Shown here: positions 12,176-19,968 of the stretch, in pieces | Numbering within the stretch: the stretch's first letter is position 1 | How the letters are laid out: every line of letters starts with the position of its first letter | NCBI GenBank assembly: GCA_010093995.1 | Contig: ML992528.1 | Span: forward strand, 54,464 to 74,463 | Length of the DNA stretch: 20,000 bases | Direction of reading: 5' to 3' | DNA from: Elsinoe ampelina | Lineage: Eukaryota | The notes under the pieces: model-generated | Databases searched by the model: none | Told to the model about the DNA's origin: nothing | The model's input: the letters and a program-made list of their open reading frames with translations, nothing else | Program-made: the position numbers and the translations under genes

Positions 12176-12361
12176 TCGCCAACGCCATGCAGCATCTCTA
12201 TATCGCCAGCGCCATGCAATGTGTCCTTTCCATCAACGCCATGCAAGCCCATCATCCAAACATCGCTATGCCAGTCTTATCCGTCTCCGCTGTGTAACCA
12301 GTCTTGTCTGCTAACCCCATGCAACCAGTCTCGTTCGCCAATGCCATGCAATTTGTCTCCA
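12176..12361. repeat. Degenerate 27-bp tandem repeat (minisatellite), 7 units, one of them 24 bp
   Basis: Units start at 12176, 12203, 12230, 12257, 12281, 12308 and 12335. Core approximately TCGCCAACGCCATGCAA, e.g. tcgccaacgccatgcagcatctctata / tcgccagcgccatgcaatgtgtccttt / tcgccaatgccatgcaatttgtctcca. Confidence 0.85.
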
Positions 12362-12539: not shown

Positions 12540-15500
12540 TCAGTCGACGCGGACCCACCCCTCTTCTGTCAGAGGATGATAGCCTCCTTCAGCGATCACC
12601 TCCCACCTCTCCTCTCTATCAGCAGGAGCGCGCCACTTGAAACCGTGTCGACCAGGTCGCAGCTGCTTCGGATCCGAATCATCCACGAATTCTGGCAGGT
12701 AGCCAAAACTGGTGATGGGATCATAGCCGCCAATCATACCTTGGATCGCAAGCTCCGGTGCAGTGAAGACATGACCCCAGGTGAAGCCGGTGCGGTTTCC
12801 AGGAGACACGGGTCGCTTCTCGGGGGCCGGAGGGGGCCATCTGAAGGTACCATCGCTAACGGCACCCCACTGCTGACCAGCAGGACGTCCAGGAATGGGT
12901 CTGTTGTGGACTTCGAGATGAGCGCCGTATGAAGGCATATTAAAATGTTCGCGGCCCATCGGTCCAAAGCCAGGCACTTCGTCAGGTATCTCGGTCGCTG
13001 TCAGACCAGTTGATGTTTCGGGATCCCATCTGCCGCGCGTAATCATTGCGCGCCTCTCCTCAAAGTCACCGGGTTGGCGGAATGGAGGCTCCGGTGCGCC
13101 CAAGCCTTTGTCATGGTTGTCTTTGTACGGACCTTTCGGTAACACAGCACGCTGTCTGCCGAACCAACTCGTCTTCTTCTTCGTCCTTGATGACTCCTCG
13201 TCATAGTCACCAAAGTCTGGCAGATCGCTCATTCCGCCTGCGAAACTACCTCCCGGATCGCTGGACTGATTGCCGGGGCTGGATCTGAAGGGCTTGCCAG
13301 CGTCGGAGGCTGGCAGGCCAGTAGCACCAGAGGTCGCTTGATCATCAGCGCCAGGCGCCGACAACCTACCAGCACCAGAGCCCGAGCCACGAGTACCACG
13401 GTCAGAGGGACCACCGCGTCTACCAGTCGAAGCTTCCGCTTCATCATCGTCTTCGCCTGTGGTAGTCGTGCCCGCCATCTCGACATCGATATCGACACCT
13501 CTGGCCGCATCAGCCGCTGCCTGCTTCGCAGCGTTGAACTTCGCAGCAAGCCATGGGCTCATCCCTTCGGTCGGCGACCTGGTCGGGATGGCGGGGTCGT
13601 TGAAGAAGCCCGCTGGAGGAGGTTCGTTGAAATGTTGCCAGTAGAGAAGATGATGGTCCCTGCGCGCATCCCAGGCGTTCGCACCCTCAGTATCTGTCGG
13701 CCTCGGTCCAGCAGGCCGGAAGCGCAGCCAGTTAATTTGGTCCGTGGTCTTCTCATAGCCGGTGCGAGGGTCAGTATCGTCATCACCTGCTGTAAGAATG
13801 TCCAGGTAGCCAGTCGAAACGAAGAATTCATAGGTATTATCGTCGATAGGCAAGTCCGAGATTCGCTTCTTGGCTGCGGTGACATGAGGATCTTCCGTGA
13901 CGTCTTCCGAACCACCAGCTGGCTTTGTCGCTGTAGGTGAGTCCATGTTGACATTGATGTTGTCCTGCATGAGTTCATCGTCGTCAAATGTGGTGGTTTG
14001 TCCATTTCCAGTAGGGACATCACTACCCGCTTCATCCGTAATCGCAGCAGCTCCAGCTCCTCTGGTCCTTTTAGTCGGCGGCTCATTTTCTTCTGGCTCT
14101 TCACGCGAGCCTCTCGCCTTCATCAGCCTGTCCAGCTCCGCAAGCGTTTCACTTATAGTTTTCGAGCCGGGTCGCTCCTGACCTCCAGTCCTCCGATCGC
14201 TTCGCGTGGATGGCGCGGTAGGGGCGAGCTTCGGCTTCCGAGCAGCCTTCGACTCAGGTACTCCAGCTTCTTTCTCATCGTCGGCGTCGACATTGTTCTG
14301 ATCCCCGTTGTCGTCGTTCGCAGATCTCTTCCTCTTTCTTCCAGGCTGAACCTTGCGTTCATCATCAACCTCGTCGACATCATCGGCCTCGGTTTCTTCG
14401 TCATCGTCGTCGTCGAACTCCACCATACCGCCATGAACATAACCGTCATGCTCCTCAACCCATTCGGCGGCATGAACTGCTGGATCGAGTCTAGGAATCG
14501 GCCTGTTCGGATCGTAGTCTTCCTGCCTGATCTGGATTCGTGGAAACTCAGCAGCGATACGGCCAATGGCATTGTCATCGAAGTCGTGAGCGCCAAAGTT
14601 ATCGAATGCAGTTTCAAATCTCATGTTGGCATTGACAGTATCCAATTGATCCAGAGAAGAAGCCCCGTCGGGAAAGTAGCCGCGCATCTGTCGTCCATGA
14701 AAGCGATGTCCAAGCACGAGGCGTCGTAGGTGGCGTACCCACAAGACCCAGCTGAGACCTGTGAAGCCACGGTCGTTGTTGATGTAGCACCATAGGCAGG
14801 ACAGGAAGACAGTCTCAATCGTATCTACGAGGATCCAGCGCCCGTTGCAGAAGAGCCACATGCGTATCAACCTCTCTCCAAAGAAGCACCAAGCATTCCA
14901 GTAATTCCAGTCTTCAGGCTTGGCATCTGGCGGACCTGGGAAGGGACACCCGTCGGCACCGAGAGCGACTTCACAGCCACCAGAGCGCTGTCCGGTATTC
15001 AGGATTTCGTCGACGAGTGGCTTGAGTCTTTCCTGAAACTCAAGCGGCTTCCAGCCGATGCGTGGAGGGTTCCGCTTGTTCGACATGTATTGGTGCTTCT
15101 TTGCGGTTATCTTCTCTTGGTGGCTTTGATTATCCGGAAAGTGCTTGCCAGAGCGCATCTCGTACTCCATCATCTCGAACTTCGCCGCGGTAAGGTCCGT
15201 CCCAAATCGACCGGCCTTGTTGTGAGCCTTCTTCAACGACACTTCGTGGATTTCTTCTTCAACGTCGAGGAGGTGAGAATACTCTTCGGGAGACGCGGCG
15301 CTCTTGAGTTTGACGGCGATTGCAAGCCAGCTAGGGTCCCATGTCGACTTGGCGAGGTTGATCCATAATGCGGTAGGTACGACATTGTGCTCCACGTGGT
15401 ATCCAAATGTGCCATCAGACCTTCGGGCAACTCCAAAGAGGGCGTCTGGGCTGGCTTGTTCTTCGCGACCGACTCCCTTCAGATATCGCCTTTTCCCGGG

Positions 15501-17234
15501 GAGAAAATAGTCGGTGGCATAAGGCGGGTCCTCCGCTAGACCTTCCGCTCCCGGCATAGTGCGCATGGCATCGTCGAGGTCGCTATCGGCGACTGGGATG
15601 CCTCGGGTTACATCCTCTCTGATCAAAATGTCCAATCGGCGACGTATGGATCTTACAGTGAAACTGCAGTCAGGGCAGGTCATTCCGAGACTGACCTCTG
15701 TACAAGGGACATGGGAGCCACAGGATGTACAAGTGTGCCCTGTCCCTGGGGGCGGATCCGTTCCATGCGAACAGACAGGCTTAGGCACTTCTCCTTGCGC
15801 GATTGACTGGTTTGTCACGTCGGCAGCAGCAGCAATGCGCGCCATAGTATCTCGCAAGCCGATGCCGGACAAGAAACATTGGTCGGCGACGTCGAGGATG
15901 TAGGCGAGATGCGCCCAGAATCTGGAATAGACGTACAGGCATGGCCCATCCCCTTTGATACCAAGGTCTTTGAGGATCGGCTTGCTAAACTTGATCATTG
16001 TGATGTTTCCTGGTCGCTTGCAGAAACGCAGAATGGCATAGCCGCGATAGAGTCCAGTAAGACGGCGGAACTTGCTCCTTCTTCCGATCGTCGCTTGTGT
16101 AATCGTCTCGACACATGCACCGAAAGCGCCTGCATTTTCAAAGATGCGCCCACGGAGTTGTGCGGACAGGTAATAACAGAAGTCGATCGCTCGTTGATGG
16201 CGATCCCTCTCTTGGCCCGAGTATTTCGAATCCGGTACAATTCGAGACGTGCTGATCGCTGGCAACAATGTGGTTGACGGTCCATCCATGTCGGTTTTGG
16301 TAGCATAAGTGGTTGAAGCTGGAAGGGTTGGGATTTGTTTGGCCATGTCAATGTATTTCGGGCTGACGTTAATTTTTTTGACCTTCCAACCCTCGTCGTC
16401 CATCATGTAGACCCCAAAGTACGCCCCGTATGCGCCCGCAGTCTTTCCAGTGCCAGGCACAGGATGTGGTAGAGGGTCAAAAGTATGGTACCCATGGTGT
16501 TTCTTCGCCAGGTCCATGATCTCCTGGCGAAGCTTTGATGCAGTCCTGCCCCACGGATCCCCTGGGTAACGTTCGAGGAGTTCCTTGACTGTCTTCACAA
16601 TGGGAATCATGTTGTCTGTGCTGATTGTCTTCTCGTTGAAGGCAACTGAGCCGAGGTCATTTCTTTTCACGTCGTTATACCGAGTACCGTGGGCGAGATC
16701 TGCGAAATGAATGTTGGGCCTCGACTTTGGATTGTGAAGAGCGGTGGCGAGTTTCCGGATGGTTGGGTACTGTAAAAGAACGTCCATTGTAGTGTACGAG
16801 ACAGTGGAAGGAGCAGATGCCGCCTTGTCGAATTTGTAAGTATCCAAGGCCGTCATGAAACGCTTCAGCTGCCTGGTCTCGCGGTCGTTTTCAACCTCCG
16901 ATGGCAGCATGCTCATCAATTCACGATCACGCTGGGCAAGGCCTTTGAGTCCGCTATCGATGGCAGCTTTGTTGGTGTATCCACGCATTCCTGTGTCGCG
17001 TTTCAAACTTTTCATTTGGGACTCCAACTTAGACTTTGGATTGGATCGACGATTGATGGTCTCCCTCTTCGGTCTCTGCCTCTTTGCAGGTCCAGTATCG
17101 GCATCATCTTTCGCGTCATATTCCGAGGCATGCTCATCACTCTGCTCATCGTAGTCGTCGGTGTCGATGGTGACGATTGGCTCCTTTGCAGCAGAGTCGC
17201 CAGGAAATTTCTTGACTTTGGACCTTGTAAACAT
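12540..17234 (-). CDS. Large uncharacterised protein (~1564 aa) with a Cys/His zinc-finger cluster and two HNH/His-Me-like motifs
   Basis: 4.7-kb stop-free ORF; first ATG at 17234 (MFTRSKVKK). Protein-like alternation of globular and low-complexity regions. CSH..HTCTSC..PC..CPDC cluster; motifs SPDA-x11-YHVEHNVVPTALWINLAK and LGHRFHG...NMRFETAFDNFGAHDF; acidic tract followed by RKRKR. Coding status is confident, the functional call is tentative. Confidence 0.8.
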   Translation of the reverse strand: MFTRSKVKKFPGDSAAKEPIVTIDTDDYDEQSDEHASEYDAKDDADTGPAKRQRPKRETINRRSNPKSKLESQMKSLKRDTGMRGYTNKAAIDSGLKGLAQRDRELMSMLPSEVENDRETRQLKRFMTALDTYKFDKAASAPSTVSYTTMDVLLQYPTIRKLATALHNPKSRPNIHFADLAHGTRYNDVKRNDLGSVAFNEKTISTDNMIPIVKTVKELLERYPGDPWGRTASKLRQEIMDLAKKHHGYHTFDPLPHPVPGTGKTAGAYGAYFGVYMMDDEGWKVKKINVSPKYIDMAKQIPTLPASTTYATKTDMDGPSTTLLPAISTSRIVPDSKYSGQERDRHQRAIDFCYYLSAQLRGRIFENAGAFGACVETITQATIGRRSKFRRLTGLYRGYAILRFCKRPGNITMIKFSKPILKDLGIKGDGPCLYVYSRFWAHLAYILDVADQCFLSGIGLRDTMARIAAAADVTNQSIAQGEVPKPVCSHGTDPPPGTGHTCTSCGSHVPCTEVSLGMTCPDCSFTVRSIRRRLDILIREDVTRGIPVADSDLDDAMRTMPGAEGLAEDPPYATDYFLPGKRRYLKGVGREEQASPDALFGVARRSDGTFGYHVEHNVVPTALWINLAKSTWDPSWLAIAVKLKSAASPEEYSHLLDVEEEIHEVSLKKAHNKAGRFGTDLTAAKFEMMEYEMRSGKHFPDNQSHQEKITAKKHQYMSNKRNPPRIGWKPLEFQERLKPLVDEILNTGQRSGGCEVALGADGCPFPGPPDAKPEDWNYWNAWCFFGERLIRMWLFCNGRWILVDTIETVFLSCLWCYINNDRGFTGLSWVLWVRHLRRLVLGHRFHGRQMRGYFPDGASSLDQLDTVNANMRFETAFDNFGAHDFDDNAIGRIAAEFPRIQIRQEDYDPNRPIPRLDPAVHAAEWVEEHDGYVHGGMVEFDDDDDEETEADDVDEVDDERKVQPGRKRKRSANDDNGDQNNVDADDEKEAGVPESKAARKPKLAPTAPSTRSDRRTGGQERPGSKTISETLAELDRLMKARGSREEPEENEPPTKRTRGAGAAAITDEAGSDVPTGNGQTTTFDDDELMQDNINVNMDSPTATKPAGGSEDVTEDPHVTAAKKRISDLPIDDNTYEFFVSTGYLDILTAGDDDTDPRTGYEKTTDQINWLRFRPAGPRPTDTEGANAWDARRDHHLLYWQHFNEPPPAGFFNDPAIPTRSPTEGMSPWLAAKFNAAKQAAADAARGVDIDVEMAGTTTTGEDDDEAEASTGRRGGPSDRGTRGSGSGAGRLSAPGADDQATSGATGLPASDAGKPFRSSPGNQSSDPGGSFAGGMSDLPDFGDYDEESSRTKKKTSWFGRQRAVLPKGPYKDNHDKGLGAPEPPFRQPGDFEERRAMITRGRWDPETSTGLTATEIPDEVPGFGPMGREHFNMPSYGAHLEVHNRPIPGRPAGQQWGAVSDGTFRWPPPAPEKRPVSPGNRTGFTWGHVFTAPELAIQGMIGGYDPITSFGYLPEFVDDSDPKQLRPGRHGFKWRAPADREERWEVIAEGGYHPLTEEGWVRVD

Positions 17235-17242
17235 GACTACCA

Positions 17243-17288
17243 CTATCAGCACAGGTCAGCTTCAAAGCGAAGGTTGGTGAATACGTAC
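17243..17288 (-). other. Probable intron just upstream of the large ORF's ATG (5' UTR intron or link to an unresolved upstream exon)
   Basis: The minus strand reads GTACGT...GCTGAC-CTGTGCTGA-TAG, 46 nt, the same size class as the other introns here. It ends 8 nt before the ATG at 17234. Confidence 0.6.
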
Positions 17289-17880
17289 CAGCGGTTGTGG
17301 TAGGAAGTAGTGTTGCAATACTACCAGGGCATGGAGGTGCTTGAGAGCTTGTGCAGCTTGGCAGGAAGACTGAGCAGGTGTAGTCGTGATGGGCTCAGCC
17401 GGAGCGCCAGCAGGAGAGTTCGTCGGAGGAGCTGGTCGCTATTCTCGAGCTAGGTGGTACGGTCTGGCGATAGAAACTACCAAGGTGATGCGTTGGGGAC
17501 AGTCTATATGTAATAGAACGCGGCCGCGCTGTGCGAACGATTCGCAGCTGTGGCAGCTTTTCGCCGATCTGGTAGGTCAATCTGACTGACCAGGTAAGAT
17601 TGCAATGCAAGTTTCAGCCTGTAGAGCAACGATTTGGGATCGGTAAGCTTGCCATCAGAAGCGTAGAAGTGATGGAATGGTAACAGAGTGTGAACAAGGA
17701 GGTATTAACTGAGTGAAAAGGGAGATGCACGATTTTGTACCTCTGTGAGTTGCCTCGTTTGTAGAAGCTCGGGCCAAGACCGCATTGCCGCTCCTCTGGA
17801 CAGACTGAAAATTAACCACCTTTTTTACCTAGCACCCAATACAAAGCGACATCTCACAAAGATCATCTCACACTCCGAAC

Positions 17881-18638
17881 ATGGCCGATCCAAACATCAA
17901 CGCTCATATGATGTATGATGAACAGGACAACAGCATTCACGACCTTTTCGAGCAAGACGATTGGGATGGACTTGCTGACCTGCTTTTCGCTGCCCTCAGC
18001 GATCCATTCCTTCCAAGGTTTTTCCGAGCCAAGTACCACATTCTTTCGGCCTGGTGTTCAAAGGAACCACGGGTGCACCTCGACCTTGCGAAGACTCGCA
18101 TTGAGAACATTGTTGAGGTGCTCAAGGCGGATGGGCAGCCTGATGAGGAGATCGACCGCCGTCTCAGTGTCTTGCGCAGCATGGTTGAGACTGCAGAAGG
18201 CGCGATCGAGGAGGTAGATGTGGATGAACAGTACGCCCCCTCTTGGTTTGATATTCGTTGACTAATGTGCTTAGTGGGAATCCTATTTTCGGGACCGACG
18301 ACAACCCTGAGGACAGTCTGCGCACTAGATCGACAAGCCCAGCAGGACTCATATCAGCCGACATCTCTGCTCCAGCAACCGAGAAAGGAAAGATTCCAGC
18401 CGGGCTTGATGAGGGAGAGCCACTAGAAGAAAACAAAACGGAGGAAAAGGCAGAGGAAGAGGACCCACAGGACAAGGAACCAGAGGAAAAGGGACCAGAG
18501 GATGAGGGCTATCCTGGTTCGGGGTCAAATCGTCGTCGCATCATGCCAGCAAGATCTGCTAAGGGTGGAAGGATAGATTCCGGGTTTCAGAGCTCTGCAG
18601 GCAGCCCATCCCGCCGTCGTCGTGGCTCTGGAAGGTAG
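17881..18638 (+). CDS. Hypothetical protein, 2 exons (17881-18230, 18275-18638), 237 aa; helical N-terminal domain plus acidic/disordered tail
   Basis: A 44-nt intron 18231-18274 (GTACGC..ACTAAT..TAG) joins two ORF-track ORFs in frame (..VDVDEH-GNPIF..). The ATG context is good (GAAC ATG G) and follows a C/A-rich leader. Confidence 0.8.
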
Positions 18639-19968
18639 ATTCGGAATGCCGGAAAGCAGAGCAAAGAAAAGATGGCGAGCTGGTAGACAAGCCTTAAATG
18701 GAAATTATGTATCTTGCAGAGCCGTCGTTGAAATCACCAGGGTTTGAAGAGAGTTGTTACGGCACCACGCAAAGATACGTGTCACCAGTCGATTCGAGGA
18801 ACCTCGAAGAGGTTTGATTCATGACTAGGTTCTGACAAATTTTAATGCCAATGTAACCAAGTTATATCCAGCTCTTATCGTGTTGTTGATGGATGAAAAA
18901 GTAGTGAGCAAATTTGGACTCGGGTTTGATGTTGAATCCGAGGCCTGCGCTTGGGGCAGGATCTGCCACGCCGGATGACGACCCCACTGGCACGTACTCT
19001 ACTACGGTGCAAGAGGGAGAGTATTCACTGACTTCGAACTACCCGTGAGTGAATTTTTGGTCTGAGATACTACCAGAGCCATGCACGGTAGCACGAACAT
19101 AGCCTTCGTCATTGCTATATCGGTGTGCTACATTAAGTAAATTTGTCGTGAGCGTCGACTAAGTTTATGTAGCGTGAACGACCAAAGCACACCCGTTAGA
19201 TCTCTTCAACATCCCCGATACCATGTTCGAGACACCCGGTAATGTGGCTGATGTGGCTACGATTACGTTTGTTCCATTTACGCTCTATATGACGACGGAA
19301 GAGGACGGGAGATAAAGCGACCTCACATATGAATATGACACAGCCCTGTCTGCCTTGAAGACTCGGTTACTTTTGTTCACGAAATCTGGATGATATCAGT
19401 GATCAGTCTCCTGCTTGGGAGTTGTATCAGCTACTAGTGGGTCTGACCTCTGAACTGGCTCGCATTTCCTCATCGCAAATAGATATGAACGGATGATCTA
19501 ACCTACAGCACGATGGCGTCGTGCAGACAGGACGCTTCGTCCACGATCATTGGGGTCTGCCAACTTGACGATGCAAAGGCGAAACATGCTCTCAGCATAG
19601 GCACCCACCTAGTCCAGCACAGGAAACTCGAGCTCTGCAGACCGTGCAAAGTGTGGCTGCTGCAGGGTGCCTTTGAAAACATCAGCAGCATTACTCTGCT
19701 GCTGCAGCCATTGACGCATTCCGGTCCGAGCGGAGGTGCGACGTTTCCTGGTGCGTATCTATGATGGAAGGGGTTGTGATCCCTCTGGCGACTGGTCTTG
19801 CCCTGCAGGGACATCTACCTTCTGACCCACCAGCGTTATTATGTCATTCAGCTCGCCAAGTTCTAATTCCCCTTCTGACTGATTATCATATTTGGCGTCT
19901 TGGTAGTCACCATCGTTGACACTCCCAAGCAGTCCTAGAATACCGGTGTCTTGGGATTCATCATCTCC

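Follow-up and report, generated by a model that had tools for sequence, protein, structure and literature searches.

A giant protein of Elsinoe ampelina from an undescribed ascomycete family, with a Cys/His cluster and two predicted His-Me-finger modules, as a candidate selfish nuclear endonuclease

The window analysed here is the whole of a 20,000-nucleotide stretch of Elsinoe ampelina DNA (GenBank assembly GCA_010093995.1, contig ML992528.1, positions 54,464 to 74,463 of the forward strand), and our subject is a single-exon open reading frame (ORF) on its minus strand (12540..17234) that encodes a protein of 1564 residues. On balance we lean towards reading this protein as an active, metal-dependent DNA endonuclease of the nucleus, belonging to an undescribed family of filamentous ascomycetes, that would bind metal, cleave DNA, and spread and decay as a selfish or conflict gene. 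The features that suggest this are an eight-ligand Cys/His cluster and, behind it, two modules predicted to adopt the β-β-α fold of the His-Me-finger (HNH-type) nucleases.

The initial annotation of this DNA had proposed a zinc finger and two such modules from the letters alone. AlphaFold2, run on residues 478-915 with an alignment of 117 sequences, gave a model with a predicted local distance difference test score (pLDDT) of 91.7 and a predicted template modelling score of 0.88; run on the single sequence it gave an unusable pLDDT of 35.6. The model bears the proposal out, placing a β-β-α unit exactly on each module, at the conserved residues, with a pLDDT above 90 in both blocks. Module 1 (15348..15458, minus strand; S595-x-D597-A598...H613-x3-N617-x8-N626-x2-K629) has a strand (593-598), a loop, a second strand (618-622) and helices at 623-629 and 634-644; module 2 (14589..14723, minus strand; G842-H843-x2-H846...N870-x3-E874-x4-N879, with Ala for the family's Lys at 882) has a strand (838-843), a loop, a second strand (871-875) and helices at 876-882 and 887-899. 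The Cys/His cluster (15666..15773, minus strand), recognised by the conservation of C488, H/C490, H500, C502, C505, C511, C520, and C523, would probably hold two structural zinc ions. Every motif quoted in the initial annotation is where it had been placed: C488 at 15773, CPDC at 15677 (C523 ending at 15666), TDYFLPG at 15515, ASPDALFG at 15455, GYHVEHNVV at 15404, WINLAK at 15365 (K629 ending at 15348), DRGFTGLSW at 14774, GHRFHG at 14711, and NANMRFETAFDNFG at 14633. Both modules do end in N-x8-N (N617/N626 and N870/N879), and the distance between them, put at about 200 residues, measures 192.

When the model was compared with 48,161 representatives of the PDB, His-Me nucleases, assigned by title and aligned range, made up 13 of the best 50 rows, which were the rows examined, and covered both modules; in a second comparison they made up seven of nine rows. 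The first rank went to DraIII (4l0k; Z 4.4), aligned with the zinc cluster and module 1 (model residues 5-173), the second to the HNH region of Cas9 (Z 3.6) and the third to PacI (Z 3.5, root-mean-square deviation (rmsd) 4.1, 114 of 142 residues), which lies over module 2 (model residues 251-425). I-PpoI and T4 endonuclease VII were absent from the listed matches. A profile alignment of module 1 with module 2 falls into exact register at Asn, Asn, and Lys (E 2.7e-4, with controls at 0.33 and 0.11). Because the enrichment of His-Me nucleases, the secondary structure and the positions of the residues agree, we are confident that both modules have the His-Me fold.

The initial annotation had called the protein an orphan, a description that no longer holds. 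A HMMER scan with residues 150-905 as query, which leaves the C-terminal tail outside, found 191 proteins including the query at E≤0.001, that is, 190 other clusters at 50% identity, and the family work used the best 149 of these 190. Organism names are attached to 15 of the 30 clusters looked up, and 13 of the 15 are filamentous ascomycetes (Bacidia, Vermiconidia, Boeremia, three Colletotrichum, Elasticomyces, Fusarium, Pseudocercospora, Dactylonectria, Paraphoma, Saxophila, and Peltaster); the other two come from a hornbeam assembly and are presumably fungal contamination. The family thus named spans Dothideomycetes, Sordariomycetes, and Lecanoromycetes, and the names attached are all "hypothetical" or "uncharacterized", save for one automatic Zn2Cys6 label. 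The common core consists of an N-terminal region (residues ~150-480; 15795..16787, minus strand), which ends in W-x6-A-D-x2-N and has no invariant acidic triad in the family alignment, the Cys/His cluster, module 1, a mostly helical block with an invariant Cys-Asn (14787..14969, minus strand; D761-G-x-P764, P773, W776, R788, R791-M792, C796-N797, and D804) and module 2. Although the median identity between pairs of cores is 25%, the eight cluster positions are Cys or His in 87-100%, C796 is present in 111 of 111 aligned rows, and the motif residues of both modules are near-invariant, more than chance would give. The residue counts given below are from 91 homologous frames that span both modules, with a few near-duplicates included and fragments left out.

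Recognition of this family by existing models is poor. The query matched nothing in Pfam, PHROG, or the sequences of the PDB; the His-Me families of Pfam, HNH_2 included, matched neither the query nor any of the 45 and 41 family proteins scanned, and the core is covered by no Pfam family. NCBIfam and PADLOC gave stray single matches among 45 family proteins, none from a model that covers the family. PHROG 1035 ("endonuclease VII") matched four of 29 relatives, with a best E of 2.6e-5, over roughly the stretch of the zinc cluster and module 1. The part of the query submitted to the ESM Atlas had no usable match, and the relative P0013 gave weak leads below 0.9 (HNH 0.78, endonuclease VII 0.76) with low recognition. 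Sequence searches of the PDB with the query, the family profile, a relative, two viral ORFs, a viral profile, and T4 Srd returned nothing significant, and PacI never appeared. Word-index searches for homologs found the query itself or nothing, with no close full-length relative among 7998 scored candidates; the closest relatives are fragments, 36-43% identical among the matches listed. A FastTree tree of 86 rows has long branches, on which the placement of the query is unreliable. A PHD finger is fused in three of 41 relatives and a weak Zn2Cys6 match occurs in one (P0054, P0076, P0110, and P0039), fusions that hint at chromatin targeting. Literature searches, which covered neither most subscription papers nor the supplementary files of PMC5714182, where members could be listed, found no published description of the family, in keeping with the view of the initial annotation that it has no characterised fungal counterpart.

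The active site of module 1 departs from the textbook arrangement, in which a His ends the first strand, often preceded by Asp, Glu, or His, and is accompanied by an Asn of the omega-loop and an Asn or His of the helix (PMC5714182). Asp-Ala stands at this place in the window protein, and module 1 had for that reason been suspected of inactivity. We instead regard Asp-Ala as the state of the family, because the canonical His position carries Ala or Gly in 85 of the 91 frames and His in none, while D/E597 is kept in 89, H613 in 89 (Tyr in two), N617 in 88, N626 in 81 (Gln in eight), and K629 in 83. Groups 16, 20, and 21 of the His-Me classification likewise have no His on the first strand, and in group 20 (PacI, mostly from giant viruses) a Tyr of the omega-loop replaces it (PMC5714182); Asp and Asn are the metal ligands of PacI and Hpy99I (PMC4081073). 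H613 sits four residues ahead of the loop Asn617 and is, by analogy, a candidate for the general base of this site; its putative overlay on the loop Tyr of PacI is likewise an analogy.

In module 2, H843 ends the strand 838-843 in the model and is present in 73 of the 91 frames (Lys in 11), with H846 in 87, N870 in 87, E874 in 85, N879 in 91, and K882 in 85; the residue before H843 is Ala or Gly, not Asp. The initial annotation was right that module 2 keeps a His in its GH pair. In the window protein, where K882 is lost, the departure from the family pattern lies in module 2, and a weakened site, if there is one, would be the second. The assignment of an active second and a doubtful first module is thus probably to be reversed. 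The Ala at 882 also occurs in some of the closest fragments. Both catalytic sets are complete in 55 of the 91 frames, only that of module 1 in 21, only that of module 2 in 13, and neither in two; both are complete in the window protein. We think it likely that at least one of the putative sites is active, and are almost evenly divided, inclining slightly to doubt, on whether both are.

In the mechanism that we propose, the zinc cluster, with two structural zinc ions, would hold two β-β-α-metal sites in one chain. At site 1, D597 and N626 would bind Mg2+ or Mn2+ and His613 of the loop would act as the general base, a layout like that of PacI with His in place of the loop Tyr. At site 2, the base would be His843 and the metal would be bound by N879, perhaps together with E874, in a spacing like that of I-PpoI, whose active-site residues are H98, H110, E114, and N119 (PMC9587614). 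Two sites per chain could replace the homodimer of PacI, DraIII, and I-PpoI, so that the two strands of DNA, or the two arms of a branched substrate, are both nicked. The target would be chosen by the N-terminal region, helped in some relatives by the PHD finger, and the gene would persist by birth and death.

The genomic record of the family points to such turnover. The genome of E. ampelina has three loci, which share no similarity at the DNA level: the gene in the window, a frame of 1421 residues on contig C2 and a relic on contig C5. The C2 paralog is 15-24% identical to the window protein, has lost most of its module-2 residues and borders on its 3' side on AT-rich DNA with the signature of repeat-induced point mutation (RIP; GC 0.27, TpA/ApT 1.9), and the C5 relic consists of module 2 only, between ordinary genes. 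Fifteen metagenome loci, several of them redundant, served for comparison, and near-identical copies aside, no neighbour is shared between them or with the window. These signs of birth and death (a median identity of 25%, a degenerate paralog, a relic, and unshared neighbours) make us prefer the reading as a selfish or conflict endonuclease. By eye, the C-terminal part of the C2 paralog (L009, 2805-3400, minus strand) resembles a fragment of an Ulp1-type protease, for which Pfam gave no match. At one metagenome locus (L016, 5880-6700; the same as L015 and L026), the family gene is followed in the same orientation by a 5'-truncated RNase T2 frame that begins at the first catalytic motif, and the missing 5' part is absent from the 2.4 kb upstream of it; this could reflect a gene disruption or the displacement of a gene end, in one organism only. 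WHO-like capture of gene ends was considered and set aside, this frame being the single hint of it, with no counterpart at the other loci, and an intron-borne (shintron-like) location of the window copy was ruled out, as its transcript undergoes its own splicing and there are no flanking host exons.

A link to giant viruses is suggested by a Foldseek search of predicted viral structures (BFVD), which gave five matches at E≤0.001 (1e-4 to 1e-3) and in which giant viruses account for 14 of the top 15 rows. The matched proteins come from Fadolivirus, Pithovirus, Yasminevirus ("HNH endonuclease"), Barrevirus, Klosneuvirus, and Medusavirus, and have 236-614 residues, with 288-480 aligned columns; they are alike in parts and not superimposable as wholes (TM-score 0.18-0.37, rmsd 11-18 Å, identity 9-14%). 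A motif scan of viral contigs, many from giant-virus bins, found at least 120 loci with a module of D-R type, that is, with Arg where module 1 has Ala. These modules have the H-x3-N-x8-N spacing of module 1, with Asn at +9 in 122 of 123 among the matches listed, and their profile matches module 1 (probability 59, E 9e-5) and neither module 2 (E 0.28) nor the control, a match that is partly circular in that the motif of the scan was picked for this shape. Whole-profile comparison of the viral modules with the fungal family is weak (probability 3, E 0.014). No relative was found in viral contigs among 13 matches to one module-2 motif pattern, tblastn against phages gave no match, and the flanks of family loci are fungal, not viral. 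Clear tandem modules of D-R type occur in two of 120 viral ORFs listed, 110 residues apart (L140, 1887-2735, minus strand; L168, 1-786, plus strand). T4 Srd (L185, 2540-3286, minus strand) has the same module spacing with a Tyr in the loop, and phage proteins labelled Srd are among the weak Foldseek rows. We regard giant-virus ancestry as plausible, if less likely than not. The suggestion that the gene is selfish or virus-derived has survived as a plausible one, supported by the viral structure matches, the decay of paralogs, and the changing neighbours; nuclease activity, mobility and viral origin are deductions.

A second thread is the word CTGGTAGT, of which there are eight copies at the C2 locus and nine around the C5 relic, where chance would give 1.08 per 9.9 kb (P 2e-5 and 2e-6), with zero or one in four flanking stretches. 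Across the genome, inverted pairs of the form CTGGTAGT, a spacer of mostly 12-16 nucleotides, and ACTACCA number 129+126, against 3+1 for the control. The 5' leader of the window gene holds a near-consensus inverted pair with one mismatch and a 15-nucleotide spacer (17298..17327), whose link to the protein is a candidate one; exact copies number only three in the entire window and zero or one at each of six family loci of other fungi. The paired words cluster at the C2 paralog, in three 81-nucleotide repeats (L009, 7019-7267), at the C5 relic (L010, 3956-5384) and more weakly in the leader of the window gene (17237-17575), where the 3' splice site falls on one TGGTAG. Seventeen sampled paired sites adjoin varied genes, and we read the word as a putative lineage-specific regulatory site. 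Four of the 17 (L030, L033, L038, and L059; contigs C1 and C2) share a dispersed repeat of up to 200-250 nucleotides, 80-94% identical, which is possibly a small non-autonomous element.

The gene is transcribed. An RNA contig of run X3 spans 12606-16017 of the ORF without gaps and with zero differences, further pieces are covered by runs X4 and X6 of two other studies, and all three runs also splice the intron of the neighbouring peptidase gene. None of the three is recorded as RNA, and we judge them to hold RNA from their spliced joints. A GT..AG intron of 52 nucleotides (17237..17288, minus strand; joint 17236/17289 in run X3) interrupts the 5' leader 2 nucleotides upstream of the ATG, and the spliced leader has no upstream in-frame ATG. 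The C-terminal 630 residues (~935-1564; 12543..14432, minus strand) are acidic and of low complexity by composition, with basic patches that are possible nuclear localisation signals. In the 3' flank (12178-12357) lie short repeats based on GCCATGCA, which a separate X3 RNA contig covers. The gene is close to the end of its contig (C28) in a genome of 28 Mb, and its neighbours in the window are fungal housekeeping genes (KIN17, ABC1 kinase, M28 peptidase, the AMPK beta subunit, and a P450). A small, divergent acidic ORF (17881-18640, plus strand) belongs to no Pfam family and has a 48%-identical paralog on contig C56; as an antidote partner it has no counterpart at other family loci. RNA contigs of three runs stop at 18865-18868, near this ORF, one of them continuing into the leader of the nuclease-like gene, and a weak skip on the minus strand (18325-18468) is seen in run X4, which leaves the strand and structure of the transcript near the small ORF ambiguous.

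Several observations weigh against an active, selfish endonuclease. The best structural Z of 4.5 is under the trust level of about 8 given for the tool, each match being weak alone, and Foldseek found nothing in the PDB at E≤0.001. These two results would also suit modules that resemble His-Me fingers by convergence alone, a reading to which we give very little credence, since secondary structure, residue positions, the match to viral HNH-type profiles, and the His-Me enrichment all speak for the fold. Module 1 has no canonical His, with H613 proposed as its base by analogy, and the window protein differs from its family in module 2, both at residue 882 and in a loop that reads GYF instead of TGW. 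His-Me folds may moreover turn to DNA binding only, as in Smad MH1 (PMC5714182), and a dead or nick-only, sequence-specific binder of this kind, possibly recognising the inverted CTGGTAGT pairs at its own loci, would account for the missing His in all 91 frames, for the loss of K882 here and for the excess of the word at two paralog loci and of its pairs across the genome. We consider it unlikely because both modules, in sequences that have diverged deeply, retain putative metal ligands and a His, and because the word is scarce at the loci of other fungi and, in exact form, in the window itself. On the side of mobility, no terminal repeats or target-site duplication were found in seven regions, no transposase in the flanks and no linked partner gene at family loci, and the window copy sits among ordinary genes without a RIP signature.

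Another rival is a domesticated host nuclease serving repair, recombination, or meiosis, for example, a single-chain resolvase like endonuclease VII. The wide spread over three classes, the strict conservation of the motifs, transcription and splicing, the "endonuclease VII" label from PHROG, and the PHD fusions are all consistent with it. Against it stand closest relatives that are 36-43% identical fragments, a degenerate paralog and a relic in the same genome, and unshared neighbours, and we judge domestication to be improbable, if the most serious of the rivals. Rapid divergence around fixed catalytic positions would in turn fit an effector, a cell-death DNase or RNase of antiviral defence, heterokaryon incompatibility, or spore killing; the long acidic tail could then be autoinhibitory, and His-Me fingers are common as conflict effectors (PMC5714182). 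As 86 scanned family proteins contain no NLR, HET, Crinkler, or secretion-type domain and no conserved linked antidote gene was found, we think there is only a small chance that this is the role. We keep to the selfish or conflict endonuclease. In its boldest form, which we offer as speculation and would not expect to hold in full, a double His-Me endonuclease related to those of giant viruses, with two chemically different sites (one with a loop His, one like I-PpoI), has colonised the nuclei of filamentous ascomycetes as a selfish enzyme standing on its own, able to home or drive with no intron, intein, or transposase to carry it; in this genome, the inverted CTGGTAGT clusters at its copies may switch such genes on when spread is possible.

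The family comprises some 190 deeply diverged clusters, and both plant pathogens and lichen formers are among the fungi that host it. Should the family prove active, it would offer a new variant of the active site, in which a loop His goes with Ala in place of the canonical His, a nuclease scaffold with two sites in one monomer, and a case in which the idea of a selfish gene with viral links in the nuclei of fungi can be tested.

Among known systems, PacI and its group 20 (78 members from giant viruses, four bacterial, and six eukaryotic; PMC5714182) come closest to module 1, with which they share the absence of the strand-1 His, a likely pair of metal ligands in the Asp and the helix Asn, and a residue in the omega-loop that could serve as base. 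In PacI this residue is Tyr, whereas the fungal loop has His in 89 of 91 frames and Tyr in two; PacI has a CxxC/CxxC knuckle at its nuclease motif, whereas the fungal modules lack conserved Cys and have a separate zinc cluster upstream; and PacI is a homodimer of 142 residues, whereas the fungal proteins carry two modules in a chain of 900-1700. Unlike PacI, the family is also encoded by a nuclear gene, interrupted in some relatives at shared positions that resemble introns. Module 2 (H843...N870-x3-E874-x4-N879) parallels the H98...H110-x3-E114-x4-N119 of I-PpoI but has Asn for H110 and Ala or Gly for S97, and the zinc ligands that His-Cys box enzymes weave into the nuclease motif are not so placed here. 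The settings of I-PpoI and KolobokP, a group I intron or a neighbouring DDE transposase (PMC9587614), are not those of the window gene, which is free-standing and spliced. DraIII (PMC3996161) resembles the zinc cluster and module 1 (Z 4.4-4.5, 123-125 residues aligned, rmsd 8.6-11) in having eight Cys and His ligands, which make up two zinc sites, beside a β-β-α site; it differs in being prokaryotic, with a single site per chain and a canonical His183. In the table of 38 His-Me groups (PMC5714182, Table 1), free-standing nuclear two-site endonucleases of HNH type are absent from the fungal groups. The family has the predicted His-Me fold and its Asn residues without the full defining features of PacI group 20, the His-Cys box, or the fungal HNH_2 and CR-HNH groups. 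These last (groups 6 and 38, PMC5714182) are also fungal His-Me proteins with a presumed role in conflict, but the present family differs from them in its motifs and its tandem layout.

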